64,000 nucleotides of DNA, taken from Phyllosticta citribraziliensis (taxonomy: Eukaryota). The position numbers were made by a program, and so were the translations under genes. Numbering within the stretch: the first letter of the stretch is position 1; every line of letters starts with the position of its first letter. The DNA is taken from contig NW_027117350.1 of assembly GCF_038025025.1 (NCBI RefSeq), positions 1,178,001 through 1,242,000 on the forward strand. The letters are read 5' to 3'. Under the pieces are notes generated by a model. That model did not search any database. It saw only the letters and a list, made by a program, of their open reading frames with translations, and had not been told where the DNA came from. Positions 29,778-56,730 of the stretch are shown here, piece after piece.

Positions 29778-29923
29778 GAATGGCCTTCTCGCTGGCGGGA
29801 ATCATACTCGCTGGCGGGAAAGGCAACTTGCTGGCGGGAATCATACTCGCTGGCGACAATGGGCATTCTCGCTGGCGGGAACCATACTCGCTGGCGGGAA
29901 TGGCTTTCTCGCTAGCGGGAATG
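29778..29923. repeat. Palindromic minisatellite array 1 (7 x ctcgctggcgggaa)
   Basis: Core repeats every 19-22 bp. Confidence 0.9.
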
Positions 29924-32320
29924 GGCGAAGGTGGTCGCGAGGGCAGGCGCAGTCGACGGGAGGGCGGTCGGAATGGTCCATGGCGAGCGGCCAGGGTGCA
30001 GTACTTGGACGGGTCCGGGTGGACGAAGCCTTTGTGTAAAATGGCGCCCTGTCACCCATCGTGGCGTTCGGTTGCTACATAGCGTTGTGCTTTTGTCATG
30101 GCCGGTGCTTGAAGTGGCACAGCATGGTGGTGGACGGGAGGGGACAGCCACCTCAGCCACCTCAGCCACCTCAGCCACACCTGACTCGTACTGCACTGCA
30201 CTCTCACAGTGGGTGACGAAAGAAATTACGAATCCGGAGTTTTCCCAGAAAGCTCTATGAAGCTGCCCTTTAGATAAATAATTTTCTTTCTATACTCATC
30301 TTATTCCTGAGATCTTTCTGATAAAGATAGGCCCTTTTTTTGGCCTAACTTTGGCTATTGTGGTGGTAAAACTGAGCGAAAAGGGTATCAGAGCTGTCGA
30401 AGTTCTTTCGTCACCCACTGTGCTCTCGACTGCGACGCGACAGCGACGTGACCGCGACCGACACCGCGACTTCAACCCTTCGACCTACAACCAATCCATC
30501 TCTGAGCCGTCCATGTTTGCACGCCAATTCTTGTCCTTTTCTTCCACCGTCGCCTTTTTCAACCCTTCGCTGCCTCCTCGATTCGCGACAAATTTGCCGT
30601 CGTTCTCGGTCGCAGACTCGCTGCCCCCACCTCCGATTGCGCTCCGCGGCGAACGCGAGCACCAACTTCCTGGACAATGCCTCTTGAGGCCTCCGATTGA
30701 ATATCGGAGTGAGTAGCAGCAGCGTGAGTGAGCGCAGATCAGTGCGAGCATGCTGGCCCATATTCAGTAGCCTAGTAGTGGTGAATACGACGCGCCGAGG
30801 CAACGCCACTGGCACCTACATGTATGTATCTCTTTTCATCTCGGGAACCAAGACTCATCTTTCAAGGCCAAGATTCCCAATCTCGAGGTCGACACTCGGC
30901 AGCCATCTCTTCATCACCGCTCGCCTCCCTGCCTTCTCGTGGCTTCCTCTTTCGCGGACGACACAACATTTTGGAGGCTTCGAGCGACGGGAAGGTCTTG
31001 ATCTGGGCCCAGCGCGTCCCATCGCTCGCCTTGCTCCGCCAGTCCGCCATTCAACACAATGTCGCCCTCCTTGGCTCCTATTCAGTCGCAAGCAGAAGCG
31101 GCGCGTGCAAATTGTGGGACAGTTGCCGGGGCACGTACGCTGTGTGAACGGGGCGGTGGGCAAGCAGTTGACGGGGTGGGTTTTGCTGGCCCGCTCGCTC
31201 CACCCGCCGAGAGATTCGTGGTCAGAAACCAAGCTGCCTTAGGACACGACCAATGTCCTGGAGGGTCGCCAAGTAGCTGCATATACGTACATTGTCGGCT
31301 GGCTGACCCAGGTGGCGCGCCCAGTAAGAGGACTGATTGACTCCCGTCTGCGCCGCATCATTAACTGGATTGACAACGTCCAACGCAACTCCAGCCTGCC
31401 CTTTTCAACCAAGCGCCGTCCCTCCTCATCGTCGTCATTGTCGTCGCCCACCCTCCCTCGCAAGCGCTGCCACTGCCCCATGTGAGTGCCACCGCCCAGT
31501 ACGCCAACAAAGCGCCCAACAACAAGCACCTTCGAATCCGACAAGGACACGCCGCGCCCGTCGCGACCGGCCCACTCGTCCAAGAGGTCGCGCACCAACT
31601 CGTCTTCGCGCTCCTCAACTTTGGCCCGCAGTCCCGTCAAGACTCCCGCCGATCTTGCCATCTAGGCCACCATCACGCCCGTCAGCCTAGATTGAATCAT
31701 GTTAAATCTGGCTCAAGTCCTCAGTCGTACACTGGATGGGGTACTTTGTGCTTTGCTGACCGAGAATCCCAGATGGCGCGATACCGCAAGCTTCTCCTAG
31801 GAAAGGAGCTCCAGAAATCTTTACCGGGGCCGACCCATAGTCCGTTAGAGCAACAAATAGACAAGCGCGTTTGCGTCGGTGTTTGCCTTAATGTGGAGAT
31901 GCGTCGAAACAGCCAGCTCAGACTGCTTGAATTAGTGGTGTGAGTGGGCAACGCTGACAGAGAGAGAGAGCTCTAGTTGGTTCTTTTTGAATGGTGCTTG
32001 ACCACTCCGAATTCACGTCGAAATAGTGTCAGGGAGCGATGTAAGCCTTCGATTGCTTCGACGGGAATGGCGGTATCCGTTTGTATCTAGACGCTGCTGG
32101 ACTCCGGAAGACGCGCGAGTTTTCCAAGACGCTCTGGTGTGTTGAGCTCAAACAAGAGAGAGGAATAGAAGCGAATCCCGATTGGTGAATGGGACAGCAA
32201 ACCATTACTCTTTGCGCTGCGACCAAGCATTCATATATCAAGATCCCACGGTAGACCATTCTCACTCGCTACATTCCATGAAACCACCTCTTCAATTCTA
32301 GTCTGCTACCCTGAGCCCAA

Positions 32321-32927
32321 ATGCCTTTGAACACCAGTAAGTGCATCGCATCATTACCAGCGAACAGATAATGAACGCGTGCTAGATCAACACCAAGTCC
32401 ATACTGCACGGCAAGAGCAGCTGCAAGACTCGGCTCGACGCGGGCTTTCGTCGTACGCCAAAGCAGATCCAGAACTTCCATGGATACTGGCCTTCTACGC
32501 GTCAATCATCATCAGCTTTCTCCAGCTAGCATGCTTCGTCGCCACGGCCTTCTGCCTCTGCAGGGCCGTTAGAGACGACATCAAGCTGGCAGAATTCCAA
32601 GTCGCAATCGACGCGCTGGCCAAGAAGATCAAGTGCTCCGCGGACTACTTTGAATACGGCTGCGACGGACCGCGCATGCCTGCGATGGAGAACGGGTGCA
32701 TGATTTGGGAGCTGTGCATGAAGAAGGATGTAAAGATGCCACAACTCAGCAGCGCGCGCGCGATGGCCATCGTGATCAGCTCTTTTGCCGGGTCCATCTC
32801 GTTCAAGACCTTGGCCATGTGGGTAGTCGCCGGCGGCCTTAATCTTGTCCTTCTACGTTATCTCGACAGCCCTCCTTTCACGGCTCCCCGTCGACAAATG
32901 GCTGGCAGCCGCTGTTGGAAGTGCTGA
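32321..32927 (+). CDS. Brr6/Brl1-domain nuclear envelope protein (short, divergent), 2 exons
   Basis: ATG at 32321; intron 32337-32385 restores frame. TM helix, 'VRDDI', four-Cys loop C-SADYFEYG-C..MPAMENG-C-MIWEL-CM, then 'ARAMAIVISSFAGSISFKT' and a second TM helix. Confidence 0.8.
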
Positions 32928-33325
32928 ATCGAGATCCTAGAGGTCACCGCCGCTCTTCTCTTCCTTCCGCTTGCCGATTCGAAAATAATCTCGAAAGTCA
33001 ATTGCAACGCCGCAACAATGTCCACCACTGCTGCAACACTGCTGGTTCCATGGTCGAGGAGGTGGACAAGACGATGCTCTCATAGGGCGACACTCAATAT
33101 GATGCCTAAGGTCGTGGAGCTATCTATCCGAGCTGATTTTGTGCTTTCGTGGATTCGTCTTGAGAATGTCGCCACGGAAATGGACACGTGGGCCTCGATG
33201 AAGACAGATGAAGTCAAAAAAGATGGTTGATTCAAGGGGCGAAGGGAAAAGGTTCTGTATGCAAAGTCAATCTTCTTTACACTTGTTTCCAATGAATGCA
33301 ATTTCCTCACGATCGTTGGGAAGGA

Positions 33326-33455
33326 TGAGGTCCTACTGCTCTGCTCACCTTGAGGTCCTACTACTCTGCTCACCTTGAGGTCCTACTACTCTGCTCACCT
33401 TGAGGTCCTGCGCTCGCGCGCCTTGAGGTCCTGCGCTCGCGCGCCTTGAGGTCCC
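33326..33455. repeat. 23-24-bp tandem repeat ending ccttgaggtc (about 5 units, two sub-types)
   Basis: ctactctgctcaccttgaggtc x3, then ctgcgctcgcgcgccttgaggtc x2. Confidence 0.85.
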
Positions 33456-34882
33456 GCAAGCGAGCCCAGTGGGCGACGAGGGAAATATATAGAGGTCATT
33501 GTGCGCAAGTGGTGGGTGCCGCCTTCTCCTCTGGGAAGTCCCCCCGCAGCTGAGCAGGATGACGGGAAGCAGCACCCACCGGACCTGCCTGCCTGAACCC
33601 ACGTGGCAAACGATGAGAGTGCAAGAGGTGACCTTGAGCACCGCAGCGCGTATATTGGGTCAAAATGCAGGGCCCGCGCTGCGGCTCTTTGCGCAGCACC
33701 TCCGGATGCTCAAACAGTGTCCGGGCGGGGGTTGTGGCTTTGCATGATGACAGTGTGCCTCGTGAGATCAAATCTGGCAAGCTCATGTAGACCGAAAATA
33801 GGGTGGATGGGAGTGGAGTGGTGCAGCATCAGTTACCGGGCGAGAGGGTAGTGAGTTGTGAATGGGCCGGTGGGGGCGGCGCTGTCAATGGGCGCTGGTA
33901 AAGTGGCAACAAAACACCAGCACATTTCTACCCTGTGGCCGAGTCAGCCGCACTGCCTGCAGCTAACCACCTGTTTGTTGCACGTTCCGCGACTTGAGCG
34001 AGCGATGGGTGCTTCCACTCTCTATGCGACATGAAAAACAGGGATGCAACGCCGCTCCAAAGTTTGGCCACCATGGAGACGTCGATTGTCTCTCCAATTG
34101 CAGAATTATCTCAGCCTTCTCCTTTTGCAGAGGCTTGCCAACCCCGCTGGAAATGCAAAGAAAGCAGACCGTTGCAGCGTTGTATCAAAAAAGCAATGAG
34201 CATCAAGTTTTTGAAATATGGTGGCGCCAACTTCGCCGAGGTTCTGCTTGTAGCTTTCCTGGGCCGAGACGTAGTGCTCACCCCATGTGCTGATGAGAAA
34301 TTTGAGCGCTGGAAATTTCACCCTTTCCCGACGGGAACCGAAACCGATGCCAGATCGCGTGCGTCGTCGAGGGAGTGGTCTGCTGCGTGGAGGGGCGCCT
34401 TGGATGTAGGAGTCGACCGCTGGGATGTTGACCGCACGTTCCTCGGTGGAACAGGTGGCAGGCCCCATGGGTTCTCGCGGGCGTGGTCTGTGGTGCGCGG
34501 AGTGGACGGGACGAACCTGTGCTGGTTTCGGTGATGGGTAAGGCGACGCGGAGTTGCAGGCGCGTAATCATCGTGATCGTCTCAGGCAAGAGAGCCGTGC
34601 CCGATCGAAAGGCTTGAGTCTGGTGTTGGGCGGCGGTGTGTAGATGGTGACAGTGAAGGTGAGAGGAAAACCACTGCATGCGCGTATCAGCAAAAACAAC
34701 GCGACGGCGACGGTGAGAGGGCAGGGTAGCAGAAGCGTGGGAGGAATACGTCCCATAGACGTAGGGCATTCCCTGAGCAATCGTCGGAGACGGCGAGCGA
34801 ACGGTGTGATAGATGGCGAGAGCGGCGAGCAACGAGCGGCGAGGAGACAGTTTGCCGAGATGAGGAGGGTGTAGTAGGAGTA

Positions 34883-34934
34883 GGAGGAGGAGGAGGAGGA
34901 GGAGGAGGAGGAGGAGGAGGAGGAGGAGGAGGAG
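34883..34934. repeat. (GAG)n microsatellite
   Basis: Perfect trinucleotide run just upstream of array 2. Confidence 0.95.
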
Positions 34935-34969
34935 AACCTGAGCCGCTGGGCAGTCACGTGGACTATCCA

Positions 34970-35106
34970 ATTGCCGCCGGCGGGAATCATACTCGCTGGC
35001 GGGAATGGGCATACTCGCTGGCGAGAATGGATGAATGCCGCCGGCGGGAATCAAACTCGCTGGCGGGAATGGATGTCGCTAGCGGGAATGGCTTTCTCGC
35101 CAGCGG
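34970..35106. repeat. Palindromic minisatellite array 2 (about 7 cores)
   Basis: Same core and orientation as array 1; preceded by gtcacgtg at about 34954. Confidence 0.9.
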
Positions 35107-38100
35107 CTTTTGACCACCACCACCTACATCCGTCATCATCACCATGGCGCACCTTAACAACCAGCCAGCCTATCCCAATCTCCTCGGCCACACTCAAGCG
35201 CAAGCGTAACCACTCCCAAAACTCCCTTTGTCCGTATTCTTAATAACCAATTTGACGCCTACCTTGTGCAGTGGGACGGTAACTGGCTCCCCCGGCTCCT
35301 CTACCATTTCATCCGGAATCTGACCTCACTCACTCAAGCGCGTCGCCGATTCCCACCTCCTCCGTCTCCCTCAATTCGACCTCGCATGCCTTTCCACCCA
35401 AGCACGACGAGTCTGACGAGGACAACGTCTACACCACCTCGAAATCGACTGCCTCCCATCCACCACCACGGTTCCCGTCGGTCGTTCATCCAGCCTGTCT
35501 GGTTTCCCCGGTGGCTCAACGCGGCGACATGAGAAACAAACCTGGGCTTGCGGAATTCCAACGACGTTGTCGACAGAATCGTGGCAATCGTTTCCAGAGG
35601 AGGGCAGGCCGACACAAATAGCAACTGAGAAGGGAAAGGGAAAACCAACAAGCGGCAAATGTCCCGCCTGCTCCCGCCTTAGCCTTGGTGTCTCGCCCCA
35701 GCAGTGCAATCAGCGACACGGCATCAAGCAATGGAGCTACAAAAAGACGGCCCTTCACCCGATGTCAATGGATCTCCTGGACAGAGCGGCAATGCCACCA
35801 ATGGAAACGTCAACGGTGGTCAGGGCCCAAAGTCTCAGCCTTCAATGTACGACACTACTCCACCTGCTTTTCAATTCAAGTCAAAAACGCGCTTGTCGAA
35901 AAAGCACTGGCTGTACTGGGCGATTCCGTCCAGCGCGACACCGCCAGGCTCTTGGTCTGCGGCATCGGCTTTCTTTTCAGCAGGAAGCAACAGAAAGCGC
36001 CAGGCGTCTAATGGCGTGTCTCCTGTCGCGCACACCCTGAGCTATGCGCTGCTGCTATCGCCGCGCGCGAAGAAGCACCACTGACGGCTTAGCTCCAAGC
36101 ACCAGGGCCTGTGCCGCTGAACCGAACGACAGCTCGCCCTTCCCCGAAATGAGAGTGAACCGTGAGGTCAGCGTCCCATGTGGATCCATGGAGCGCGGTT
36201 TCGCTGCTGGGTGACTGTGCCACTGGAGACGTTGCAGATACTGGGGTTATATGCTTTGGGGGATAAATGGTCGGGAATCAAAGAGGGCCTGTGCTCAGAT
36301 TCAACTGGGTTGCTCGACACCGCATCGGCTGTTGTTAAGCGCCCCTGCCAGGCAATACCCGTGGAGGACGGAGGCTTTGCTGTTCTTTTTCCAGTAATTT
36401 CAAGAGCCAACCAAGGACTTTAGTGCGCCGCGGCCCTGTCAATCAAGACATTTTTGAAAACGCCGCCGACGCTTGATGCGCTCCAGGAGAATAACGTGGA
36501 CACTCAGCTTTGACGTCTTGTGTGGCGTAGGCGGCCTTCTTACTACCCACCTTCTCGCAACATGCTCACCAGCAGACCGCCCTCCCTCGCCATCTCACTT
36601 CACCGTTGCTCCTTTGCATCGTTTGAATGCGGTGCGCCTCAGCACCAGGCCTGAGACAGAACGCAACCTTGACGACTCCATTCTGTCCACGCATACGGCA
36701 ATGCCAGGAGATGGCAGGCGTTCAGTTCAACCTGCTCAAAGCCAGCATCATGGGGGATGAAGACGCGGTGGTGGCAGGACATCGGCGTCCACCATCACCA
36801 CGTACCACCCATCAGCAAGCATTCAGTGCGTAGTTGAAGAAGCACGCTGGTCACCTGCACGTGTGCAGGCGACTGGGAGCGTGTCTTCAACGAGGGAGAG
36901 AAGCAGGAACCGGAAGAGTTTCTTGTCTACGGCGTCTAGGCAGAGCCTCTAGGTCGCCGGGTAGGTGGTTAGACAGAAATTCGAAGGAAGGTTCCATGGC
37001 AACGCGCCTAGAAGTGCAGAAGGAGATGTCAGATGCGACGGTGAAGGGCCACGTGAAGTAATTTCAACGACGACAGCGACAGTAAGAACACGAACATGAA
37101 AGGTTCCGCCGAGAGAATCGACGTCATGGGCGTTGACCCAGGCGCGACCGCGAACGAGCGCGACATTGAGGCCATGGACAAGGTCATCGGTGGAGAAGCG
37201 CTTGATCGCGATCAAGGGCAAATTCTCCAACGGACCCGAGAGGTCCTCGGCGACGCTGCCAGACCCGGACGCCCCTTCCAGCATCAATAAGGACGAAACA
37301 TTTGTGAACCTAGCACCAATTGGCAGTGAGTTCTCCTGCGGCGAGACCACAGACGCCTACTGCCACACGCAGTACAACCTGCTCCTTCCTCGCTGGGCTT
37401 GTCTTTTGCTCGGCGACCGCCCCGCAGGAATACTTCAACGGCTTGTTGGTGTGCGGCACGCACGGCACTCTGTCCATGCTCATGACCGACAAGAAGTTGC
37501 TGATGAAGGCCTAAGTCAAGTTCGCGCTGGTGTTGTATGAGAGGATGACGAGCAAGATCCTGTCCAAGGTTGCGGACCCGACCACAAGGTACGTGTCGAA
37601 GGTATTCATGCGCACCGACTAGGACGAAGTCTTTGTGTCGACGATGGAGTTGCCGGCGGAGATGGAGGAGAATTCCGAAGGGAGGGACGCTCTAGTCGTG
37701 CTTGGGAGCATGGTCCTGGCGGCGCAGGTGGTGAAGTACGTAAAGATGAAGAACGGCGCGATTTCCGCCGTGGGCAAGGACGCGGTGGCGAGCCCGAGGA
37801 TGGTCGAGAAGTAGCCGACTTTTGAGTGGGTCTGCTGGCTCTGGCAGTCGTCCTGAGGATGGCATGCCGCCGTTGCGAGGAACCGATTCCCAACTGCTTG
37901 AACGCCCCGGCCATGAAACTCCCCAGCCAGTGCAGATCCCGAAGCAATGGCGGATGACGTGCCCTAGTCAGCGCCAAGCTGCCCAATGACCAGAGCTGCT
38001 TCCCACTCAGCGGCGGTCCATGTTTCTAGCCCTCTTGCAGACCTAGCAGGTACATACAGGGGAAAACCCACGCACTCAGCACAGGTGGTAGGCTTCCCAA

Positions 38101-40169
38101 GTTGACTGGTGACGCGGGGTTGGACAAGGAGAATATCGCCAACTTCCCTGAGAATAATGTACGGTTGATGGTGAAAAAGATGCTCCTGCATTGAGGACAG
38201 CACAGCTGTTCGACGCGAAGGTCGGCGTGCATTCTTGCTCGAGGCTGGGCGCGGATGACACAACGCATGGGACGGCGAACAAGGGCGCCGGATGCGCATC
38301 GCACTCCCGACATGTCTTTGGCTGAATTGACCGCTAGACGCTGCTTCAACTCGCGCGGAAAACGTAGTCTTGGAGGTGTCGATGTCGGTGTCTGGGCTGG
38401 CGGCGGAGGACTCAACTTTGAGTGGGCGCTATAATGTTGAAAAGTGGCCGTCTCCTTCTTCACAATTTGAGGCGCAAGAACTGCGTGCTTCGGGTGAGCT
38501 GGTGGGATCCGTGAATCACATTCGGCGGATATGCAGTCAGTGTTGACGTGTGGTCCGCATCCGGCGTGGACGAGTTTTGGTCCTGAGGTTGCTCCAGGTC
38601 GTAGTCTCTGCTCTTGTTGTCATTAGACTCTCCTCTCCAATTAGCGACGCCCTCGTCGACGTGATGAGCTCCACGCGCAGTACCGCAGCAATTGGCTGGG
38701 CGGCCATCAGCGCGCGCAATGGGTTGATCAGTGGCCGCCGACCGCTGCGAACAAGTGAAATTGGTGGATTCCGGGGATAGCAGGTCAAGGGCGGAGTAGA
38801 CAAAGGGCGAAGAGGATGGCCTTATTGATCCAAGTGGTGCTGTCGAAACGTCCCAGTACACGAACTCGACCTGTCAGCGTGTGAGATGGTGTCTAGCTTT
38901 GAATGAAAACAGGGCAAGGGAGGCGTACATTTCGAGCAGCTTGGAGGAACTAGAACGATCGGATGTGGGGCGAAGACGGAAACGGAGGGTGATTCAACTT
39001 GTCGACCTATACCAGTGTGGTGACCGGCCTTGAATGAAGAGAGGGCGAGGAAGGCGTGCTTCTCTGGCGACGTCTGCTGGTGCGGACGCTTGCCCGGCTG
39101 CGTTTCGTCACCGGCGGAAGTACGAGCAAATATCAAGTCCCGACCATGCCCCACTTGAGAAACTCTTCAATCCTATCACAAAGGCGGCGGCGCCCTTATC
39201 ATGACGCGCCGTCGTCGCACACAAGTCATCCGGCGCAAGAAGCGATCGCGGGCTCTGGTTTACCCTTCAACTTGGCATGCGTGGCCTCAGCGTCTTGGAC
39301 CGCGACGCCCGCGGGCGGCGTCAACGGCTGCCGACATGGCATTGAACGGGTCCGTCGCGATGGCGGTCCTTCGCCCAAGATGCCCAAGATGCCCAAGACG
39401 CCCAAGGCTAAGGTGGATTCTTGGCGAGTTCTATGATGCGCATATCGTTCAAGGCAAAGGCGCCCCAAATAAGGTAGATTACGCTTTGTCCGACCTGATA
39501 GCACCCACTGAGCTGCTCCATGGCCTTGTCGGTCTCGTTCATGGGAGGAGCGCGAGATTCTTCGGTCGCTGTCTGCCCGTCGGCCGTCATACGCTCTTGC
39601 TCCATTTCAGAGTCGCGCTTCCGTTTCCTGGGGCGCTCGATCATAACAAACGGATTGGATAGGTCGATTCCCTCGTTCAAATCCTGAATTGTTTCGTCCG
39701 GAGCTCGGTCAAAGGTCCAGTCGACGTCTCCGAGCAAGGTTTCGGCATCATCGCGTCTTGTGTCCTCCACGCTTGCTTCACTCGCGGTCCTTGTTGCTGC
39801 CGGTGCCGCTCACTGGAGTTGTGTCTTCAACTATCGGAATTGAGACGGGGCCAAGGTTGTGCTGGCGCTTTTGCAGGTGTGGAGGGGTGCGTTCTGCGGG
39901 AGAGGACGGGTCGCGTTCTGCGGGAGAGGGCGACGCGCGATGTGCGGGGGAGGGCGACGCGCGATATGCGGGAGAGGACGGCGAGCATATTGTGGACGGG
40001 GGCGAGGTTGGCAAGGGTGACTAGGAGTAGCACATGGTGTAAGCAAGCATCATTTGGGTTGAATTATATGGTTGCTCACAGTGTAGAACTGTCGCTGAGG
40101 GGGACTTGGAGCGCTTCAGGGCTGTCCATCTTGCTGTTGGGTGTCAAGTCGAGGCAAATTGCGCGCCTT

Positions 40170-40765
40170 GTCGCTGGCGGGAAAGGCAACTCGCTGGCGG
40201 GAATCATACTCGCTGGCGGGAATGGCCCTCTTAGTAATCACCTTCTTTCTTGCTGGTGGGGAGGCCATTCCCGCTAGCGAGTATGAATCCCGCTGGCGAG
40301 AGAGCTGGTCACGTGAGCGAGGAAGCCATACTCGCCGGCGAGTATGCTGGTCACGTGAGCGAGGAAGCCATACTCGCCGGCGAGTATGCCGGTCACGTGA
40401 GTGAGGAAGCCATACTCGCCGGCGAGTATGCCGGTCACGTGAGCGAGAAAGCCATACTCGCCGGCGAGTATGATTCCCGCTAGTGAGTGGCTGAGTCACC
40501 CGCTGGCGAGTATGCCGGTCACGTGAGCAAGTGGCTGAGTCACCCGCTGGCGAGTATGGTTTCCGCTGGCGAGTATGCCGGTCACGTGAGTGAGCAGCTG
40601 AGTCACCTGCTGGCGAGTATGCCATTCCCGCCGGCGAGTATGCCGGTCACGTGAGCGAGAAAGCCATACTCGCCGGCGAGTATGATTCCCGCTAGCGAGT
40701 GGCTGAGTCACCCGCTAGCGAGTATGATTCCCGCTGGCGAGATTGCCATTCCCGCTAGCGAGATT
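40170..40765. repeat. Palindromic minisatellite array 3 (3 forward cores, then an inverted block with 42-bp units)
   Basis: Unit ggtcacgtgagcgaggaagccatactcgccggcgagtatgcc; 7 CACGTG and 4 TGAGTCA sites. Confidence 0.93.
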
Positions 40766-43700
40766 CACCGGCCACTACTTAACACGTCCTGGGGAGCCCA
40801 CGAGCAACTGGGCATCTTGGACAGCACGTTGGGCCAGGTCTTGTCTATACCAGACGTCCGCATGCGCGACTCGCCTTCGTAATGCTTTCAACTCCAACTT
40901 CTTTTCCTCCTAACGACGCGCTCCTAATTGCTCCAAAATTGACTCTCCTGAGTCCACAGTACCCTGGCAAGCGATGCCACCAATCAACAGGCTACAACCA
41001 CCGAGCCCTCCACTGAGCCCTCCACCGAGCCCTCGACGCGTGCGCTGCTTCAACAACACAGCACCACGCTCAAGATGTCAAGCCTGATAGCCTACCTAAT
41101 ATAAGAAATAAATGACATCTAGGAGGATATCACAGCATTTTCTCTTCAGGATATACATTCTGGACTTCGCTAATAGCGTAGGATGACACACCAAGAATAT
41201 CGGATGCGGCAACTTGGGCACCGAATCGGTTGGCTTGTGGGGTCCTCCTCCTCCTCCTCATTGAGATCTTGATCGCTTGCAGTATACACGTGGACCGCTC
41301 AGATTCGTCGCGACTTGGGGCTTCATTCCATGGCCAGGCTCTTGGGTCTGTCTGCCTTCATTTTCGGGTCTATTTGTGTGCTTCGCCCCAGCTTCAAATT
41401 CTACAGCTTATCCTCGCCTCACTCAGGGTTTCTGGTGGCTGAAGGCTTTCCCTCTTTCTATAAGAGCTCACGGAGTGTGTCGTTGACATTCGGCGCGCCC
41501 TCATTGGTGTCAACGGGTCAGCTTGGATTACAGCGGCCAAGCGGCGCCACCAGAGTCACCGCGCGCCTGTTCTCCACAAAACCACAGCGACCACTCGTCA
41601 GCCTTTCTCCTCTGAAGTCGCTCCAGGCACCGCGACTCATTCCAGAGCGAAGCAGCGAGCGAGGCTCGCCCCCGTTCCCGCGGACATTTTCTTCATCTTG
41701 TCCCCTGGAGACGAGCCCTTACACCATCCACTACCCGGCATCGACAGGCTATAAGTGTCCAAGTAGGACTGATGCAGAGAATGGTACGTGAGGTGACCTT
41801 GGCTTTGGCCGTTTACACGTTGGTGGGCCAAGATGCGATGAGACAAGAAGGAGAAGAGCAACAGCAACGGCGGGCGTAAAGAAGATGAGAGAAGAATTTA
41901 TAAGGCGGTTGTGATTCTGTTGGATTAGCGTTGGCGACACCGGGAAGAAAATTGGTCTTCCTGCACTCCCACTCTTGTTAACCTTACCTCCATCTCAACT
42001 CTACTCACCTTCATCTCAACCACTCTACAGCTATCCCAAGCTATCAGACGAGTGCGTCGCCATCTCCAATTTCTCAGCCATTCTTGCTAATCAAGACGAC
42101 TGCATAGGATTCTGTGTTTGGAGTCCGGGCATTAAAAACTTTCCTGAACCAGCCTACGCCAACGACCTACTTGAGACGTCACTGGACATTGCCGCTGTTC
42201 AAGTACTGTGTGAAATGATCCTGCTGCCTTCGTCCGCCGCCGTGCTCCTACCTCCCATCATCTGCTATCCTTTACTCACCGCCCTCATCTTTTTAGAGTT
42301 CACTTCTCACTTCGGCCCCCCATACTCCTACTACCGCCAAAGCATGTCTATAAACAGAGGTGCTTGCAAACCCCTTATAAGGATGCAATCTTGAGACAAG
42401 GTTGTAAATCTCGCAGCTGTGGGACTGAAAGAGGTAGGAGACACATTACCAAACCAAGGGAGTTTTGCGCTAGCTACCCGCTGGGCTGTTATTCAAACTC
42501 GATGTACGCCTGCTCGAATGTATCCTTCAGCTCCTACTCCTCCAGTTGGTCCGTCCTTTCATCACCTTGTGACTGACATCTTGCTTCAGTTGCTGCAAAC
42601 TATCCTTAACCTCCTTCCACTGTTTCCACGTGCGACGCCTGGTGTCGACTCGGTCCTCTGATGCTGTCGAGCCGCGCATCCCATATATTGGCCATGGTGC
42701 GGAGCCTGTCGATGACTGCCTCGCTCGTCAAGCACCATTCCTTCCATCGGGTGGTTGGTGCTTCTCGACCGTATCAAAACCCAATATATGGTGATGGATG
42801 CGGTGACCACGATGGCCATGCCTCAGCTCGCACTCCATACGCGCAACACGTTTGTGACCGCACAGGCGAGATTCATGCGCAATGTGGTTGCCACATTCCT
42901 GGCTCTTACACTTTGGTTTTCCACATTCGTGCCGGCATGCATCTTTCTTAAGAATCAGAGCTGTGGTCGCGTCCTGAACTGGAGCTGAATCAGAGGCTCT
43001 CATCCTACGCCTTAGAGATTGACCTCTGCTATGCTACCAGGACATGAACGGCGTGAAAACTTCGAGACAGGACGAGAGAACATGGAGACGCATATGCATG
43101 GGGCCAAGTTGAGCAAATATTTGGATCTGTGGGTACAGTGCTGATTGATTGAATACATAGGTGCGTGGCATTCAGCGGGGCTGGCCGTAAATCCATGACA
43201 CCACCCCCAACTCCTCCCCCACTTGCTGACGACCCATAATCCTGTGGAGAAGTGGCGGCCAGACGCGTCGGGGACTCTGAAATGGATTGTCCTGAGTGAA
43301 AGGGCTGCTGTGGGTTTCCTCGTACTGTACTTGAGGCGTGTTTGCTGTGGATGGACGTGATCGTCTCGACGGCGGCGGCAGCTCATCAACCTCGTACTCC
43401 TGAGCCCGAGCATGTTTTCTCCAAGCGTGCTTCGACGTCGGATGCTGTTATTGCTCTCGCGGGACGGGTTTGAGGCCAGATTTGACTGATGGGTACCTCG
43501 CGCCGCCTTCGTCGGCTCTGCGTTCGCTGTCGAAGTAGCCCGCCCGGGCAGCACACACGGACGGCGGATTCCAGTCTGTTCAACCTTCGAGACGCCAGAA
43601 AGTGGGAGGAGCAATCTGCGGACAGGAGACGGTGTGCTCGTCAAGTTTTGCGCGTATGTGAGCTGGAGTCGAGGCGACGATGGGCGCTCGATGAGCTCTG

Positions 43701-49396: not shown

Positions 49397-50327
49397 CTAG
49401 GAGGTTTGTGAAAGGCGGTCCGAGGCGGGTATGCTCAAATTCCAGTCTGTCTTCTGCCCCGTGCGGTCCATTTCCGCCGACGCCTGCTGCAGCACCGCCT
49501 CGAGCACTTGGCAGAGGCGCCTGCTCTGAACCCCCGCGTCTCTGGTGAGAGCCGTCTCTGTCTGTCGGAGCTGGAAGCTCTGTGCGTCGAGTGCGGCCGC
49601 GAGCGTATTTGCTGTGTCCGCGTCCACTTGTCTTGTTGGCCGCGACAGCGCGAGCGTGTAGCTCCAGCTCGCCGCCACATGGCGTCCTCGGAGGCGCTGG
49701 TGACTTTGGGGAGCTTCACCGAAAGCGGCGACAGCTGCGGGGCAGTGTTGTGCTTTGAGCCAATCTTCTTTGGTTGGATGTGCTCCGCGTGTTTTGGCAG
49801 GGCGCCATTGCTGAGCTCTGGGGGGCCGGAGATCCACTCGTGAATGAGGAAGAGAAGAGGCACAATGCGACACAGGCAAGCCTGCCTATCAAGCACTGCT
49901 GGAGCCGAAGCCGCGTGAGGTAGACCGCATGGGCTGCGAGCTGGTGTGGAAATTGTGAGAGCCGAACGAGGCCTGGCGCGCCTGCGGCGCTGGGTACCGC
50001 GCGTACAGATGCTTCTTGGCCGGGGACAGGTGAGGTCTGCAATGCTCGTCTGCGAGGCACCCGTGCGGGCGCCAAGCGGACCTGAAGTGCTTCGGACCTC
50101 CTGTGGTGTGCCGGGTGTAGGCGTAGCAGTGTGGGCGTGCGACGGTTGTGGCAGTACTCCAGAGTCGCCTTTTGGCATTCTTGGTCGGGCTGAGAAGTTG
50201 GGGCAGTACTTTCGATGACGCGAGCGTTGTCGGGCTCGATGAGGCGCTGCAGTTCGGCGAGATGGTGCGCGAGTTCTGGCGGCGGCAGCGAAGACGTATG
50301 GTGGTGGTGGTGGTGGTGGGCCGTCAT
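49397..50327 (-). CDS. Hypothetical (possibly disrupted) gene divergently transcribed from the CenH3-like gene
   Basis: ATG at 50327 (MTAHHHHHHH..), continuing into the helical ORF that ends at 49397. Exon structure uncertain; no family recognised. Confidence 0.35.
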
Positions 50328-50635
50328 GGTCGTTTCGGTCGAGGATGATGGCCTGGGGCGACGACCGTGTGAGCGTCGAGCATGACGCGCAAGCAAGCGA
50401 GAAGATGAAGTGGCAAGGAAATGCACAGGAAGTGTGACACGGAGTGAGGGAGTGAGGGTAGACGCAGATGGATGGACGGACGAAGAAAACGACAAACCTA
50501 CCGACATGTACAGGCTGGCACCTGCGGCTTGTTTGCTCCATGCCTGAGGCCGAGAGCGACGACGACGATTGTCTACATATTTAGTTTCTTGGACCTTCAT
50601 CAACCTCTTTCGATCCTCCATCCACTCAATCAAAA

Positions 50636-51148
50636 ATGGCACGATCCAAGCTCGGGAAGCCGTCGAAACGAAGCCTCTCACAGCGTATGTCCGACAACAC
50701 CACAGCCAACACACTGCACATTGCTGACACACAGTTCGCACGCGCAGCTGGCGACCCCACCCCTCGGCCGCCGGTCAGGCGTCGCAAGTCCAGTGCCGTT
50801 GCCATCAGGGAAATCAAAGCATGCCAAAAGTCGACCGACCTCTGCCTGCGCAAGCTGCCCTTCTCCCGCCTGGTCAGTATGCCACAGACACAGCCACACA
50901 CACATACACACAACTGACCAACACGGTACCAGGTGCGGGAGATTGCTCAAGCAATGACGGATGGCGCCAGCGGGGTGACGCGGTGGCAGGTCAAGGCGTT
51001 GGAAGCGCTGCAGGAGGCGGCCGAGGCGTACCTGGTCGGTGTGATGGAGGACACCAATTACTGCGCCCAGCATGCCCGTCGCCAGACTATCAAGCAGGTT
51101 GACATGCAGTTGGCGAGACGGATCCGCGGTCGGTTTGAGGCCCATTAA
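50636..51148 (+). CDS. Divergent centromeric histone H3 variant (CenH3/CENP-A-like), 3 exons, 129 aa
   Basis: Exons 50636-50684, 50748-50872 and 50933-51148 give [129 protein letters not shown]. Confidence 0.85.
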
Positions 51149-51393
51149 CAGTAATTCCGTCCGCGGCAGCGGCACAACATACATTGGTTGATTGGATAGA
51201 GACAAACCGACAGGGGAGAGGGAAGCTCTACAGGAAGGAGAGGAGGCTTGCGGCCGTCGAAGATGGGGATAAGCACTGAATTCATGCAGATTGACGTGCG
51301 CTGTGTGTGCTTTAGCTTCTTGTGTGAATCTGCCCAATGTCATTGAATGTAGTAGTATCAGCAGACTAACCCAGACATATGACTCGCCACTAC

Positions 51394-52275
51394 CTAAGCA
51401 AGCTCGTCCTCTCCGTCCTCCTCATCATCATCATCATTATCATCATCATCGTTCAGCTTCTTCACCAGCCGGTTGTACTGGGTAATGGCCATTGCCTCAG
51501 AAACTCCCAGCTCTTCCGCAATGCCTTTGAACTTGAATCCTTTGCGGCGTTGGCCCAGGAGGTGGTCCTTTTCGGCCTGGGTCCATCTTCGGTATGATTG
51601 ACTGTCGCCACCGGTGGCCGAGCGACCCTTCTGGACGTCGTAGAATCGTTGCCTCGCTGCTTGCAGCGTGCGCCCGGGCATGTGCGCTGGAACAATCTCT
51701 GCCCACGGCACCTTCTTGTCCCGCAGCTCTTTCATCCTCGCGTCCTCCTCGGGGGTCCAATTGCCAAATTTCAGGGCGCTGGCGTCGATGGGTTCGATGC
51801 CTTCCTTGGTTGTTGTCGTGATGGCGGGCCGAATCGGCACATTTGTTGTTGTCCTTGATTCGGAAGAGTGAGTATGAAGCATGTCAACAACAATCGACCC
51901 TTGGTGAACTTACTCGTGCTTGTCCTCTTCTTCTGCCTCGACATGACTGTCCATCCTCTCCTCGTCCTCCTCGTCGTCCTCTTCGCCCTCCTCTGCCTCC
52001 AGCGTGTCGTCCATCCTTTCCTGCGGGGTTTCATCTTGACTGCAAGCGTCATCCCAAGCCAGAGCGGCGAACGGCCCCTCCTCCGGGTAATCTTCCATGC
52101 CTGCAAGGTACCCGTGGTCTTGCACCAGATCGCCAGTCGCCAAATCCACCACGTCGTCTGCGCCGTCACCGTCGTCTCGCGCATACTTTGCGAGGAAAGC
52201 GTCGGTGAAAATAGCATCTGCCCATGCTGGCGGCAGCAGCGGTGATGGCGCTGCGGCCTGGTCGTGGGGAGGCAT
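51394..52275 (-). CDS. Scm3/HJURP-domain CenH3 chaperone fused to two Myb/SANT repeats, 2 exons, about 273 aa
   Basis: Exon 52275-51914 has 'FLAKYARDDGDGADDVVDLATGDLVQDHGYL' (Scm3-like KY..D.IDL.TGEIV.DNGHL) and an acidic tract. Intron 51854-51913 keeps frame. Exon 2 has 'WTPEEDARMKELRDKKVPWAEIVPAHMPGRTLQAARQRF' and 'WTQAEKDHLL..KFKGIAEELGVS'. Confidence 0.78.
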
Positions 52276-55200
52276 CGAGTAGGATGGCGGTTGATGGATC
52301 TGCAACGATCTGGTTTGGCGTGAAGAACGGAGGAGGTACTGGCGAAGGAGTCGTTGTTTGCTGCGTCATTGTTTGCTGCACCTAGCTAGCTGGGTCTTGT
52401 GCGGAACCAGGCAGTCGGCCAGCTTGCCCCCAGGAAATCCCTTCCCACGAGGCCACACGAGGCGTTTCGCGTCGAAGGCGGAAAGAGTCGGCGCCAGTCT
52501 CTTCGCATGATCAATGGTGTGGGTTGTTGAATATTCAAGATTATTGGATCGTCTCGTTCGTTGGTGTTGACGGTACCACCGGCGACGAGCTTACCTTACC
52601 CCTTTGGGTTTGGCGCGTCGGCGCGGCCGACCCCGGCTGTCCACCCATCATCCCCGCCCCTCGACGCGACTCTCGCAACTATCTCCATCCCAACTCTCCA
52701 CACCCACCAGAAGCTGTGAACGCGCCTGAATCCACGCTTGCTTGCGCCTCCGGCAACGCCACCCGTCTCTCGCGTCTTGCAATCTACCGCCTCGTGTGCT
52801 GTCGCTTTTCGCTCGATCCGTCCAACCCCACCATCTCGTCCGTCAAACATGCTGCCGCAGCCCGAGGGGAATACACAAATACAGTTGGAGGTCGAGGGTA
52901 CATGAGCTGTGCTTGGATAGCACAGTGAGGACAGAGGAAGAGATGGAACAAGATTGATTCTTTGGATTGGCCACGACGCCTACCGTGTTTCGCCTTTGCT
53001 CGACGTCGCTCCGTATGCCAACGACAGCCGCAACAACCTCTGTGTCTATTACCGTGCGTGCGCCTGTCACGATAGAGGATGGAGCATGTCCTTTGACACG
53101 TTGACGCCAGGGCCCATGAGATGTATCTCTCTCTCGTCTGGCTCCCCCCTCACAGCTGTAAAGACGGAGCACGCTTCGGCTTCGAGGTCCGTCAGCTCTG
53201 GCGTCATTATTTGCTTCGAAGTCGTCGGCTTGAGGTCCTGCAGCTCCGGCATCATATGCTTCTTTATGGCGGAGGCGGCGAAGGTCCTGCAGCTCCGGCA
53301 CCATCCGCCTCTTCATGGCGCCAAAGTCGTTGACGCGGAGTTTGGGCTCTGCCTCTACCCCCTCTCCCGCCTCCTCCATCCATGTTGCCTTTGAGGAAGA
53401 CGATGGCCACGTCCTGCCTTTCATTGTCGCTGCCCAGGTATGGGAGCTGTGGGCGTAGTTCTGAGAGGACCCGATGGATTACAAGGCGATAGATAATAGA
53501 GGCCAGGACCTGAATGAAGGCGCGCGTCGGAGAAGGCGTGGCGGCAAGTCAAGCAAGCTGCTCTGCATCGTTAACATTTATACCAGGAGTCAAACAACAC
53601 ATGTCTACGCGCTCAGAATGACTGCCATCTGATCCGCCGCCGTTCTTTCACGAAAGACTCGGGGTCGCGACAAAAGAGCAGGGCACACCGCCCAACCCTT
53701 GAAACAGCCTGCCTTCGCCTCCTCCATGCAACCCGTGTGAAGCTTTTGGTCCATCCATGACGATCCTCGATCTCTACCTGGCTGTTCTTTCGCGGTGCCG
53801 AGCGTGGCCTCATCCAACTTGCGACCCTCCTTTTCCAATGCGCCCGGACACCTCCCACCTTTCCCACGGCGCTCCATCATCCGTCTCCATCCAAGCCCTC
53901 TGGCAATGAAAAAAACAGACACAAGGGATTTGGCTTTACACGGGTCTGTCACCACAATCGACAAGCGACACATTAAATTCCATCTTCCTCCCATCATCCA
54001 CCCTCGAAAAGTCTCTGCACACGAGCATCAATCAAAAGCCGCGAAGAGTTACTCCGTCGAGTTCCAGTATCGGCTAGAAGCCGAGCCTGACAAGCTCAAC
54101 TCTCGGATCCCTTAGGACAGCCGGCGCGTAATCCGCAGCAGGAGGCGGGACATCGGCGGAAAAGGAGTAGTGCATGGCCGACGGGGGATGCACAAGGGGC
54201 ACGTCAGTCGTGATGGTTTCCAGCCGCATGGCAGACCGCACGGTCCAGGCAAAGGCGTTGGCGTAGCCGTCTCCGCGGTGCATCAGGCGGCGCGACCTTG
54301 GGCGCGTCCCGCGCGTGTCTGCTGCGACGCTGAACGGGCTCCCCAGTCGTCCAAGCATCTTGTGCGGCGTTTGCGTTGTTGAAAGCCACTCCCAGTAGCA
54401 GTGGGCGCATGCGCAATGGGGCTGGTGGGAAATTGCTGGGTTGTACAACGGAATCCATGGATTAATGATGGGTGCTTTGTAAGGTTGAGAGCGGCTTTGC
54501 TGTTGTGTTTATGCTTAGCTTTCGTCTAACTTGCAAGTTGTTTTGGTGGTGAATACCCTTGAACGTGTGCTGCCCTTGGCAAACTGCAGGTGCTGGGTGT
54601 GTCGCGGCATTTTGAGTCCGCGTCTTCAATCTGAGCGGTTGAGGAACAGGATGGTCGCCAGGTGAGGAGGTGAAGACTGCTATATGTATCATTTCTCCTT
54701 TCTCTTTTCTTTCCCCATCAAACAATTAATGACAAGTCTAATGGAATTTGTTTTTAAGGCGAATGAGGCGCAAGCGGGGCCGCCGCTTCTTTCTTTTTTG
54801 TCAAGTGGCCAAAAGCAGTAACTCTGAGCGTCCACATCATGATGATCCATGCACAGGAAATGAAGGATGTTTGCGTCTGTAGCTGCGCTAAGCAGGGGTT
54901 TGCCCCCGCATGCATAGAATTTGTGGAGTAGAACTGAAACGGGAAAAGGAAAGAAAGGAAGAGATAGGGACTGGTAACAAGTTCCGCCACAGCCTTCGTC
55001 CTCCACCTCATGAATATCAACTGAGAATCGTTGCTGAAGGCCTAACGGTTGACATTGGCAGGCGCTGTCTCTTCCCACGCTCCCTTGTCCCCGTCGCGGA
55101 TATCCATCTCCGTGGCCCCAAAAGACGATATGGCGCGTGGAAACGCCGTTGCTGAAGCTTCTGAGGCTCCGAACGCCCCAGAAACCTCTGTTTCTTGCTG

Positions 55201-56399
55201 CGGCGCAGTCTCTTGCGCTGGTAGCTCGCGGTGGTAGTTGCGGCTGTGGAAGCGTCGGTAGCAGCAGCAGCAGCAAAGCGGCAGAGGCTGTAATTGGGAT
55301 AGAATGGGAGGAATATGTGGTGGTGGAAGCGTAGATGGGACCTGCCGATGCAGAGGTGGGATGCTGAGAAGGACGAACGAGACCAGAGGGCTGACCGATG
55401 GGAGACCTACCTAGGAAGCAGGGGTTTCTATGGGAGTACGCCGGCGCGATGAAGCGTCGTATCTCGTTTTGCGGCTGGCTGGACCACATGCCATTCATCA
55501 TCCTTTTCTAACGACAAGCACGCCAGCTCCTGGCACGCTTGGAGTGACACCACGGCCCACCAACTCATCCAGTATTCTTGGCTAGGCCTCTTTCGACGGC
55601 GTCTGCATACTCGCGATCGGGGGTTTTTGTGCGCCTCGAGGAGGATGTTGATCGGCTGTTGACGTATATCCCAGTCAACCTGGACCTATGAAATGTCACC
55701 GGTGCGGGCGAGCAAAAGGTTCTGCTGCAGCCTCTCTGAGGATGCGTCTGTGGCCGCCTGGCCGACCGTATTGGGAGCCTTGACAAAAAGATGTGTCGGC
55801 TCAGCGAGAAGACCCGCGGCTCGACCTCGAACCAAGTGCGACCAGCGCGTTGTTTCCGGAACTGTGAGCGGGCTGGATTGAGGTCTTCTGATGCTGCTTG
55901 TGTGGGCGCAGTTGGAGCGGTGCTGGTGGTGGCGATGCTAGGTTTCGACCCGGGGCCAGGCTGGCTGTTGCTGTGGGTGGTTTTCTCTGCCATCATGACG
56001 GGCGGATGAGGACGAGGACCTAAACCCTTCAGCCAAGCAAGCCGCCACCCCAGCCGGGCAGGTAGTCTCAGCCCAAAGTCTCCTCTGTCGTCGTGATGTA
56101 GAACCGATGGAGCAACTGGCCTGCGCCAAGCCGCCAGCGCAGTTGGGAGGAGTCATTGTCGCCATTTTTGCTGTGCCTGCAATGGCGGTGGTGGCAGCGG
56201 CGGCTCAGGCGTCGTATGTGGATGGCACGGCGAGAGAAAGAGAAAGAGATGTTCGCGCAGTTGAGGCGGGCGTGGGCGTGGGAGCGGGCATGGTGATGGA
56301 GGTGACGGCACGGTACAGTAGCGCGCAAGGATCTGTTGTATGCAGCGGTAGGGAGAAAAGCTAGGTCCAGGTAGCAAGGTAGTGCTTATGTAATGTCGT

Positions 56400-56730
56400 T
56401 TCTCGCTGGCGAGTATGGCCATTCCCGCTGGCGAGTATGCCATTCCCGCTGGCGAGTATGCCGGTCACGTGAGCGAGAAAGCCATACTCGCCGGCGAGTT
56501 TGCCATTCCCGCCGGCGAGTATGGCGGTCACGTGAGCGAGTGGCTGAGTCACCCGCTGGCGAGTATAATTCCCGCTGGCGAGTATGGCCATTCCCGCTGG
56601 CGAGTTTGCCATTCCCGCTGGCGAGTATGCCGGTCACGTGAGCGAGAAAGCCATACTCGCCGGCGAGTTTGCCATTCCCGCCGGCGAGTATGGCGGTCAC
56701 GTGAGCGAGCGGCTGAGTCACCTGCTGAGA
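56400..56730. repeat. Palindromic minisatellite array 4 with a 169-bp higher-order duplication
   Basis: Same modules and orientation as the main block of array 3; ggtcacgtg at 56463 and 56632, gagtatggcca at 56411 and 56580. Confidence 0.93.

Follow-up and report, generated by a model that had tools for sequence, protein, structure and literature searches.

Four dispersed arrays of a near-palindromic 21-bp unit in Phyllosticta citribraziliensis as a possible promoter minisatellite with transcription-factor sites

A near-palindromic unit of about 21 bp occurs 46 times in four arrays in the 64-kb window (the whole stretch of DNA analysed here) of this citrus-leaf fungus, and no copy lies elsewhere in it. 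We hypothesize, giving the idea an even chance, that the arrays form a promoter minisatellite, low in copy number and specific to its lineage, that would act as iterated transcription-factor sites and may have spread by slippage, fold-back and ectopic conversion. The unit has the dyad consensus GCCATWCYCGC-YR-GCGRGWATGGC. An earlier note had placed four arrays here with the common core (ct/cc)CGCnnGCG(ag/gg), and both positions and core hold: 35 of the 37 occurrences of the core in the 64 kb lie within the arrays, and the two outside compare with 0.5 +/- 0.8 expected. A 19-nt dyad pattern, searched on both strands with up to two mismatches, gave 64 matches, all 64 in the arrays, against 0.03 expected.

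The arrays (none is assigned a strand) fall into two lineages, one plain and one bearing E-boxes and TGAGTCA sites. Array 1 (29778..29924; spacing 19-22 bp) and array 2 (34969..35106) each consist of seven plain dyad units, and three more make up the left part of array 3 (40168..40230), all with the arms in the order X-core-Y. The right part of array 3 (40251..40766; whole array 40168-40766) has 18 dyad units with arms Y-X or X-X, seven E-boxes, four TGAGTCA sites and higher-order periods of 42 and 63 bp, while array 4 (56398..56733) has 11 dyad units, four E-boxes, two TGAGTCA sites and an internal 169-bp duplication at 97%; the arm order in this second lineage is Y-core-X. Overall, the arrays are 60-62% GC and their dyads are spaced 19-23 or 40-44 bp, near two helical turns. 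The units stand head to tail with periods of 19-21, 42, 63 and 169 bp, as in a minisatellite with units of 10-100 bp. The perfect 20-bp palindrome described earlier exists, in five copies that are all confined to the right part of array 3. That the ETP cluster is free of the repeat also proved correct, since the pattern scan of the window found no dyad unit there. The sole look-alike in that cluster is a 28-nt stretch within an O-methyltransferase ORF (9083-9110).

The orientations claimed for the arrays apply to the arms and fail for the unit as a whole, whose central dinucleotide on the plus strand is TG in 26 of the 46 units (CG in 12, TA in 7, CA in 1). Inverting one orientation group therefore does not simply give the other. 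In a set of 40 distinct units, 5 of 80 half-sites have a broken outer CpG and 39 of 80 a broken central C; in units that share descent this contrast is not a count of independent events, and a dyad whose spacer is free would be expected to show it. The left part of array 3 folds back on the start of its right part, and over about 50 bp the two ends of array 3 are copies of each other in inverted orientation, an inversion that arises only through the repeat units themselves. Exact blocks of 27-33 bp are common to arrays 1, 2 and 3-left (33 bp between 3-left and 1), and one of 49 bp is common to arrays 3-right and 4. The arrays thus have blocks in common without having common flanks: self-blastn with the arrays masked gave six pairs, none of them at array flanks. 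No 2-kb bin has a positive composite RIP index, and therefore the arrays are not RIP-degraded at that scale.

TGAGTCA is presumably a bZIP-type site (Gcn4/CpcA/AP-1). Six copies of it and 11 GTCACGTG E-boxes lie inside arrays 3-right and 4, none of which the earlier note had recorded; these E-boxes descend from a single founder module, and chance readily yields short known motifs. A stand-alone GTCACGTG E-box (34953..34960, plus strand) lies 16 bp to the left of array 2, with flanks unrelated to the array module, and in a related species, organism B, it is intact while neighbouring bases differ. Another E-box (56787..56796, no strand assigned) is found 54 bp beyond the right edge of array 4 and could be what remains of a decayed array module. 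The window has 13 RTCACGTG sites in total, each of them in an array or within 54 bp of one, against 4.5 matches expected window-wide, and array edge zones such as that around the array-2 E-box make up 0.8% of the window. The consensus of yeast Cbf1 is (G/A)TCACGTG (PMC3737730).

Transcription around the arrays was followed in contigs from four of seven runs (X4, X6 and X7 were left out). X1 and X2 were treated as RNA since their contigs skip GT-AG introns (no run is recorded as RNA), and X1 may contain DNA, covers 30 of 30 bins and enters array 3 from both sides. To the left of array 3, a first coding-like exon (40080..40129, minus strand) has its ATG 39 nt from the array; the adjoining intron 40021-40079 is spliced in RNA contigs, and the frame downstream of the exon has in-frame stops. 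To the right, a spliced transcript (40775..42590, plus strand; introns 42052-42107 and 42504-42589) leaves the array without a long open frame. Array 4 is left by a spliced transcript with broken frames on its left (53173..56321, minus strand; intron 54500-54556) and by another on its right (57000..58400, plus strand, start approximate; introns 57062-57117 and 57555-57614). Outward spliced RNA contigs are found in this way on both sides of the two arrays examined, 3 and 4. Near array 4, contigs from two RNA studies break off some 80 bp from the array, at 56318 and 56321, and the DNA-like run X5 continues beyond these ends to 56372. This is a weak hint of a transcription start there; contig ends cannot give or fix exact start sites.

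Two further candidate gene starts are read from the sequence only: a strong-context ATG (GCCGCCACCATGG) at 29738..29740 on the minus strand, 38 nt outside array 1 and followed by an intron-like stretch, and another at 35144..35146 on the plus strand, 38 nt outside array 2 with a broken frame downstream. Three array edges are 38-39 nt from a strong-context ATG, and an RNNATGG context lies within 50 nt of four of the eight edges against a background of 0.143 (P=0.018, in a test chosen post hoc). Because outward spliced contigs leave arrays 3 and 4 and array edges lie 38-39 nt from such ATGs, we locate arrays 3 and 4 at the promoters or 5' ends of genes that are mostly broken; arrays 1 and 2 probably occupy similar positions. 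The broken genes beside the arrays match no Pfam family above the cut-off, and remnants of HP1, Dbf4, PD-(D/E)XK and Ulp1 guessed there by eye are tentative. Paralogy among the array-side genes was not detectable, with a single pair in a six-frame self-comparison of 24000-64000; the tblastx self-comparison rows were discarded as linked-score noise.

Under the promoter-minisatellite hypothesis, the arrays would lie at the promoters or 5' ends of genes, most of them decayed, in an accessory block, and would act as UAS-like site clusters, helping to keep the DNA open and driving outward transcription on both sides. A homodimeric putative factor would read the dyad half-sites, a Cbf1-type bHLH protein would read GTCACGTG, and a Gcn4/CpcA/AP-1-type bZIP protein would read TGAGTCA. 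Slippage could multiply the units and give the periods of 42, 63 and 169 bp; template switching by fold-back, which would be favoured by self-complementary units, could flip them; and ectopic conversion could carry them between loci. The idea of iterated protein-binding sites had been put forward earlier in general form, and in that form it may stand, since conserved half-sites, a free centre, a spacing of about two turns, embedded sites and promoter positions would all fit it; its Myb, centromere and mobile-end versions are without support, as discussed below. Compared with fungal motifs, the dyad has no established match, and the motifs listed are unrelated. Resemblances to E2F, TEA/AbaA (CATTCY, 17 in the arrays), Uga3-type (14) and Leu3-type (4) sites we take as leads only. 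Selection on the flanking promoters is doubtful, because the flanking transcripts are mostly broken or non-coding.

Promoter repeats that multiply factor sites are known from the human TYMS and insulin VNTRs. In Aspergillus, tandem promoter repeats that duplicate factor sites raise transcription, and the TR34/TR46 repeats of A. fumigatus cyp51A are similar to the arrays in being tandem promoter or 5' units with duplicated factor-type sites, including bHLH-type ones (PMC9239056). However, cyp51A TR34/TR46 involves one locus, few direct copies and an intact gene, whereas the arrays are 46 palindromic units of two lineages and mixed orientation at four loci beside mostly broken genes. Similarly, promoters of the yeast Met4-Met28-Cbf1 regulon have the exact (G/A)TCACGTG (PMC3737730), which in the arrays too stands beside a presumably bZIP-type site, TGAGTCA. 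Unlike in those promoters, the sites here are amplified in tandem within a minisatellite with no adjacent sulfur genes, and the main dyad differs from the TGTGGC core of Met31/32.

Organism B holds the whole block, collinear at about 89-97% identity, including the array-2 flank with its E-box. It lacks a contig at 56587, both arrays are thinly covered in it, and array interiors differ or are missing in its contigs; the array content is therefore not well conserved. Bins without cover in this species (47854-48514 and 57769-58400) were excluded as evidence.

Rather than being read by any factor, the arrays might be a neutral minisatellite that grows by slippage, hops by template switching and survives in tolerant spacers of a decaying block with no binding of consequence, which we regard as possible, though not probable. 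Broken flanking genes, poorly covered array interiors in organism B, an X1 contig in which a 21-bp unit is missing at 56587, through true variation or through collapse in the assembly, and centres that vary among CG, TG, CA and TA, as CpG deamination would make them, are all consistent with neutrality. However, neutral repeats should occur anywhere in non-coding DNA, whereas all arrays examined are at 5' ends; the outer CpGs are spared and the central one is not; and an independent E-box falls beside array 2 in spite of the small share of the window taken up by edge zones. Alternatively, the arrays might act as RNA, through hairpins in 5' leaders or through read-through that yields double-stranded RNA or a translation block. 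Single-strand folding is indeed strong (DNA z of -8.8 and -17.9), array 1 folds much better on the plus strand (-37.7 against -14.5 +/- 3.7 kcal/mol for shuffled sequences), one X1 contig extends into array 3 as far as 40209, and the TG centres together with five of five outer C-to-T changes on the plus strand keep G-U pairs. But any palindromic repeat folds, array 4 does not favour the plus strand and array 3-right does so no more than shuffles do, and two founder mutations could account for the TG bias. Further, known transcripts run away from the arrays on either side, the left half of array 3 has hardly any X2 cover, and Rfam has no match in 27000-64000, and thus we consider an RNA role very improbable.

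Subterminal repeats are carried by CACTA, hAT and Foldback transposons, and the arrays had also been proposed as subterminal or recombination repeats of a mobile element, here a relic DNA transposon, fold-back or Starship-like element with an enzyme that is encoded beyond the window or has decayed; on its own, array 3 might be a fold-back miniature element of 600 bp. The inverted ends of array 3 are compatible with this, as is the gene-poor, decayed block with duplicated chromatin genes beside the ETP cluster; pieces of this block are paralogous to other parts of the genome (loose ends at 43274/43475, 47052 and 55258), and a partial Scm3 copy occurs in another gene model. Yet no transposase, recombinase, helicase, reverse transcriptase, DUF3435 or DUF3723 match was found in the ORFs and read-through frames scanned, the arrays lack homologous flanks and shared termini (the longest word shared by any of the eight 40-bp outer flanks is 7 bp), and the block is collinear in organism B. 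A check for target-site duplications at the arrays found none: the longest direct words between the two outer flanks of one array are 3-6 bp and not at the edges, where a decayed duplication of 2-3 bp would escape, and there is no TA at the edges of array 3. An excision joint between arrays 3 and 4 is likewise absent from the joints listed (15 of 52; 12 of 17). The block resembles Starships in being accessory, decayed and adjacent to a secondary-metabolite cluster with repeats in both orientations (PMC9156397), but differs in lacking a captain or transposase in the frames scanned, termini and target-site duplication. No Starship mark (a DUF3435 captain at the 5' end, or at least three of DUF3723, FRE, PLP and NLR) was found in 369 ORFs and 30 read-through frames of this window, past whose end at 64000 the block may extend. 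We therefore find a mobile-element origin rather unlikely.

As had been claimed, a divergent H3/CenH3-like gene (50636..51148, plus strand, two introns spliced) and an Scm3-domain gene with two Myb repeats (51394..52275, minus strand, one intron spliced) lie tail to tail between arrays 3 and 4, 5.8 and 4.1 kb from the nearest array, respectively, and a Brr6/Brl1-like domain exon (32331..32927, plus strand), whose 99% protein identity links the DNA to Phyllosticta citribraziliensis, lies between arrays 1 and 2. However, the arrays are 4-6 kb from the start codons of the pair and therefore the bracketing says little; as the stretch that separates arrays 3 and 4 takes up 58% of the span of all four, bracketing of the pair would also be usual by chance. 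Both genes are intact and transcribed without such arrays in their promoters. The proposal that the arrays are targets of the Myb repeats was not borne out, as neither promoter holds an array and the arrays hold no canonical Myb word: YAACKG, TTAGGG and TTACCCG, which we take as Myb-type words although the specificity of this Myb pair may differ, have 88, 3 and 4 occurrences in the window and none in the arrays. A homologue search with the Myb exon gave no match, and an Atlas search with it returned generic Myb clusters only, below 0.9.

We think it very unlikely, too, that the arrays are centromere-like or partition sites at which the Scm3-Myb protein loads the variant H3 on the block. An additional centromere inside a chromosome arm would make the chromosome dicentric, and besides the absence of Myb words and the chance expectation of bracketing, the high GC content, the position between transcribed genes and the lowest 80-bp GC of 0.43-0.50 within 300 bp of the arrays, which leaves no AT-rich core, count against the claim. 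By contrast, both point and proto-point centromeres have an AT-rich core (PMC13017519). In its favour, the arrays lie in the same conserved block as the H3-like, Scm3-Myb and Brr6-like genes, and at the point centromeres of yeast GTCACGTG also serves as CDEI, to which Cbf1 binds (PMC13017519); the 13 RTCACGTG sites in or beside the arrays are CDEI-type elements, which are not centromere-specific. The likeness to yeast point and proto-point centromeres extends to GCG-containing motifs and nearby CenH3-like and Scm3 genes (PMC13017519), and the differences lie in the GC-rich, multiple arrays and in the host, a filamentous ascomycete. A broader version, in which the dyad is the site of a dedicated factor, possibly the Scm3-Myb paralogue itself, and the arrays mark a family of dispersed Phyllosticta accessory blocks, each with its own centromere, nuclear-envelope and chromatin duplicates and all under a single self-spreading cis element, would make them what is left of a selfish segregation system that had its own regulon or loading sites; we hold it to be improbable. 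To our knowledge, DNA-encoded CenH3 loading is established only in budding yeasts, and therefore the Scm3-Myb protein or variant H3 on the arrays, if found, would matter much more than a promoter role; what speaks for it is proximity and nothing beyond proximity.

If the promoter-minisatellite hypothesis is true, the arrays show in nature how a palindromic minisatellite builds a promoter and moves it: one unit was amplified, gained two familiar factor sites and was seeded at several gene starts. It would explain the continued transcription of decayed duplicates in an accessory block and offer a compact test of repeat-made cis-regulation in filamentous fungi. The literature searched, supplements aside and with subscription papers thinly covered, holds no description of these arrays. 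A two-unit pattern with nine matches in the window hit 41 loci in metagenomes and one locus in viruses. Of the 41, 40 matched once, and the remaining one matched three times through a longer tandem repeat that is unrelated; each of the 42 loci has at most one dyad site, and we read all as chance. A composite pattern of dyad plus E-box had no match in viral or prokaryote genomes, and these collections, with few fungal genomes, say little on fungal range. Within the genome, X5 depth summed at 40746 comes to 518, where single contigs have 65-90, and it averages 26-59 over the arrays, with no high-copy spike; this depth, which is not a copy number, weakly disfavours a high genome copy number of the unit.

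The four arrays lie where the earlier note had placed them, at 29778-29924, 34969-35106, 40168-40766 and 56398-56733 (arrays 1 to 4), and 35 of the 37 matches in the window to the core (ct/cc)CGCnnGCG(ag/gg) fall inside them. With a 19-nt dyad and up to two mismatches, all 64 matches are inside arrays, against 0.03 expected. The unit is a near-palindrome with the consensus GCCATWCYCGC-YR-GCGRGWATGGC, and 46 dyad units were counted (7, 7, 21, and 11 in arrays 1 to 4), with a dyad-to-dyad spacing of 19–23 bp or 40–44 bp. The perfect 20-bp palindrome noticed earlier is present five times, exclusively in array 3, and no dyad unit occurs in the ETP-type cluster, in agreement with the earlier note. 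The outer CpG is changed in only 5 of 80 half-sites, whereas the centre is changed in 39 of 80; the central dinucleotide is TG in 26 units, CG in 12, TA in 7, and CA in one.

The units fall into two lineages. A plain lineage, comprising arrays 1 and 2 together with the three leftmost units of array 3, has exact blocks of 27–33 bp in common, and a second lineage, formed by the rest of array 3 and by array 4, has a 49-bp block in common. Restricted to the second lineage are extra modules, namely 11 GTCACGTG E-boxes and six TGAGTCA sites, the latter of which we take to be Gcn4/AP-1 sites; to the eye, this E-box module looks like a remodelled 21-bp unit. Both lineages meet back to back in array 3, the left part of which (40168-40230) folds back on the beginning of the right part (40251-40766). 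Array 3 had been described as flipping internally, and the two arms of the unit are indeed swapped between the lineages; however, the central strand is the same in both, and therefore the lineages are not simple inversions of each other. An inversion predating two C-to-T changes would be the simplest account of swapped arms with the same centre. No homology was found between the flanks of the arrays, and the genes beside them show no detectable paralogy among themselves; the array sequence would either have moved between loci independently or be all that has been conserved. The higher-order periods, the hairpin of array 3 and the shared blocks suggest that units may have multiplied by slippage, been flipped by fold-back template switching, and been transferred between loci by ectopic conversion. 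GGA microsatellites, which read as CT-rich leaders on the minus strand, lie left of arrays 1 and 2 (29493-29519 and 34876-34934), and the one beside array 2 is retained in organism B, a related species represented by the DNA-like run X5.

The first 25 kb of the window hold the ETP-type cluster (P450s, GST, ABC transporter, O-methyltransferase, NRPS, aminotransferase, and oxidoreductase), and the window is gene-poor from about 27 kb onward. Among 252 ORFs scanned in the gene-poor part, the only convincing Pfam matches were a Brr6-like exon, an H3-like gene (50636-51148, plus strand), and an Scm3 gene with two Myb repeats (51394-52275, minus strand). The Brr6-like protein shares 99% identity with a protein of Phyllosticta citribraziliensis, which passages of PMC6859488 and PMC9073689 describe as a citrus endophyte. 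Both the H3-like and the Scm3-Myb gene are spliced, the two are arranged tail to tail, their starts lie 5.8 and 4.1 kb, respectively, from the nearest array, and motif scans of the window found neither dyad nor E-box in their upstream regions. As for the bracketing of this pair by arrays 3 and 4, the gap between the two takes up 58% of the four-array span. A 103-bp match (71%) links 24102-24204, in the ORF closing the ETP cluster, with a decayed copy within the block (44665-44767); by eye, an HPD, J-domain-like stretch is recognisable in this ORF. Towards the edges of the gene-poor block are two short patches (27850-28140 and 58500-58760) that are AT-rich and look affected by RIP, and their read-through, from 58601 on in the second, gave no Pfam match. 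The Brr6-like exon is followed about 400 bp downstream by a distinct tandem array, with 25-bp units and a TGAGGTCC core (33326-33454), and a word similar to this core occurs near 56830, right of array 4.

Contigs from four of the seven listed runs were compared with 38600-58400, and two of these runs, X1 and X2, were treated as RNA because their contigs skip GT-AG introns. The RNA contigs place a minus-strand transcript left of array 3 (introns 40021-40079 and about 38869-38926) and a plus-strand transcript right of it (introns 42052-42107 and 42504-42589), and similarly a minus-strand transcript left of array 4 (intron 54500-54556) and a plus-strand transcript right of it (introns 57062-57117 and 57555-57614). 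This evidence on position covers arrays 3 and 4, and arrays 1 and 2 are placed by sequence alone. Left of array 4, contigs of two RNA studies end at 56321 and 56318 while X5 runs on, a weak hint of a transcript start about 80 bp from the array. A strong ATG context is found within 50 nt of four of the eight array edges (background 0.143, P = 0.018, in a test picked post hoc); three strong-context ATGs are 38–39 nt from an array edge, and one of them begins a spliced first exon. The transcripts flanking the arrays contain in-frame stops and matched no Pfam family. The transcripts at 38000-43000, 46300-50500, and 53200-58400 are long and cleanly spliced, and all three stop codons occur many times in frame; the stop-rich spliced transcripts of the block are retained in the related species and would be either transcribed pseudogenes or long non-coding RNAs. 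On the minus strand, 46300-50500 is a single long transcript, which is spliced and arranged head to head with the H3-like gene; fragments of it resemble Dbf4 motifs by eye, a resemblance that Pfam did not support. Right of array 4, units of 115–135 bp are locally duplicated (57032-57404), with a spliced intron within the first unit.

The arrays are a real and clearly structured feature, for which a regulatory role is plausible but putative. We hypothesize, with about an even chance of being right, that they are a promoter minisatellite working as iterated candidate factor sites, because of their position at transcripts, their spared outer CpGs, and the clustering of RTCACGTG at arrays, where all 13 sites of the window are inside arrays or within 54 bp of them (one within independent flanks). 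RTCACGTG is given as the yeast Cbf1 consensus in PMC3737730. Promoter tandem repeats that multiply factor sites, as treated in PMC9239056, are the closest known kind, whereas the arrays here are palindromic, modular, at four loci, and amid decayed duplicates; no description of these arrays was found in literature listings. Against the promoter-minisatellite reading count the shared descent of the units and the broken target genes, and that the arrays are instead a neutral minisatellite is unlikely, though hardly far-fetched. A structured RNA has very little probability. The plus strand of array 1 folds much better than shuffles predict, and that of array 4 does not.

The earlier note had offered Myb targets, centromere-like sites, or a mobile element, none of which fared well. 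No canonical Myb-type word, as generally known, is present in any array, although these words may not be those of this Myb pair. The passages of PMC13001451 consulted do not deal with DNA binding by Scm3-Myb proteins of fungi. It is highly doubtful that dyad arrays mark dispersed accessory blocks with duplicated centromere/chromatin genes, with the Scm3-Myb paralogue possibly as dedicated factor. Centromere-like sites are very improbable: the array E-box equals the CDEI word, but an AT-rich core is required in both point and proto-point centromeres (PMC13017519), whereas the arrays are 60–62% GC and flanked by transcripts. A mobile-element relic is decidedly unlikely; array 3 has ends that form inverted copies over about 50 bp, as a fold-back relic might, but the window yielded neither an enzyme gene nor shared termini among arrays nor a target-site duplication. 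Specifically, 369 ORFs were scanned along with 30 read-through frames, the latter from parts of a block that may extend past the window, and these contained no gene for a transposase or recombinase and no Starship marker (as defined in PMC9156397); none of the joints listed for 38600-58400 links array 3 to array 4.

In organism B, X5 covers nearly all of 38600-58400, the pieces listed being about 89–97% identical. One X5 contig runs from the left flank into array 2 and covers its first units, with the E-box intact and two nearby bases different, and therefore the block and at least array 2 predate the split from organism B. X5 has no contig at 56587, and the interior of array 4 is thus different or missing in organism B. 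Mean X5 depth is 26–59 over arrays vs. 65–77 in neighbouring bins, and at 40746 the depths add up to 518, equivalent to about six to eight single contigs, although depth is not a copy number; the absence of a high-copy spike weakly suggests a small repeat family. No comparable arrays were found in metagenome, viral, or prokaryote sequence, collections that contain few fungal genomes. Another gene model of the species (protein P0006) has about 55 Scm3-domain residues at 93% identity (window 52105-52270) and is otherwise unrelated to the Scm3-Myb gene, indicating that part of this gene was copied to another site. Together with loose contig ends at 43274/43475, 47052, and 55258, this shows that parts of the block are also present at other places in the genome. 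A broken HP1-like gene suspected by eye at 43274-43475 was not confirmed by Pfam; all four runs show a diverged paralogue of this 200-bp stretch elsewhere, with very high depth in both RNA runs (3365 in X1).
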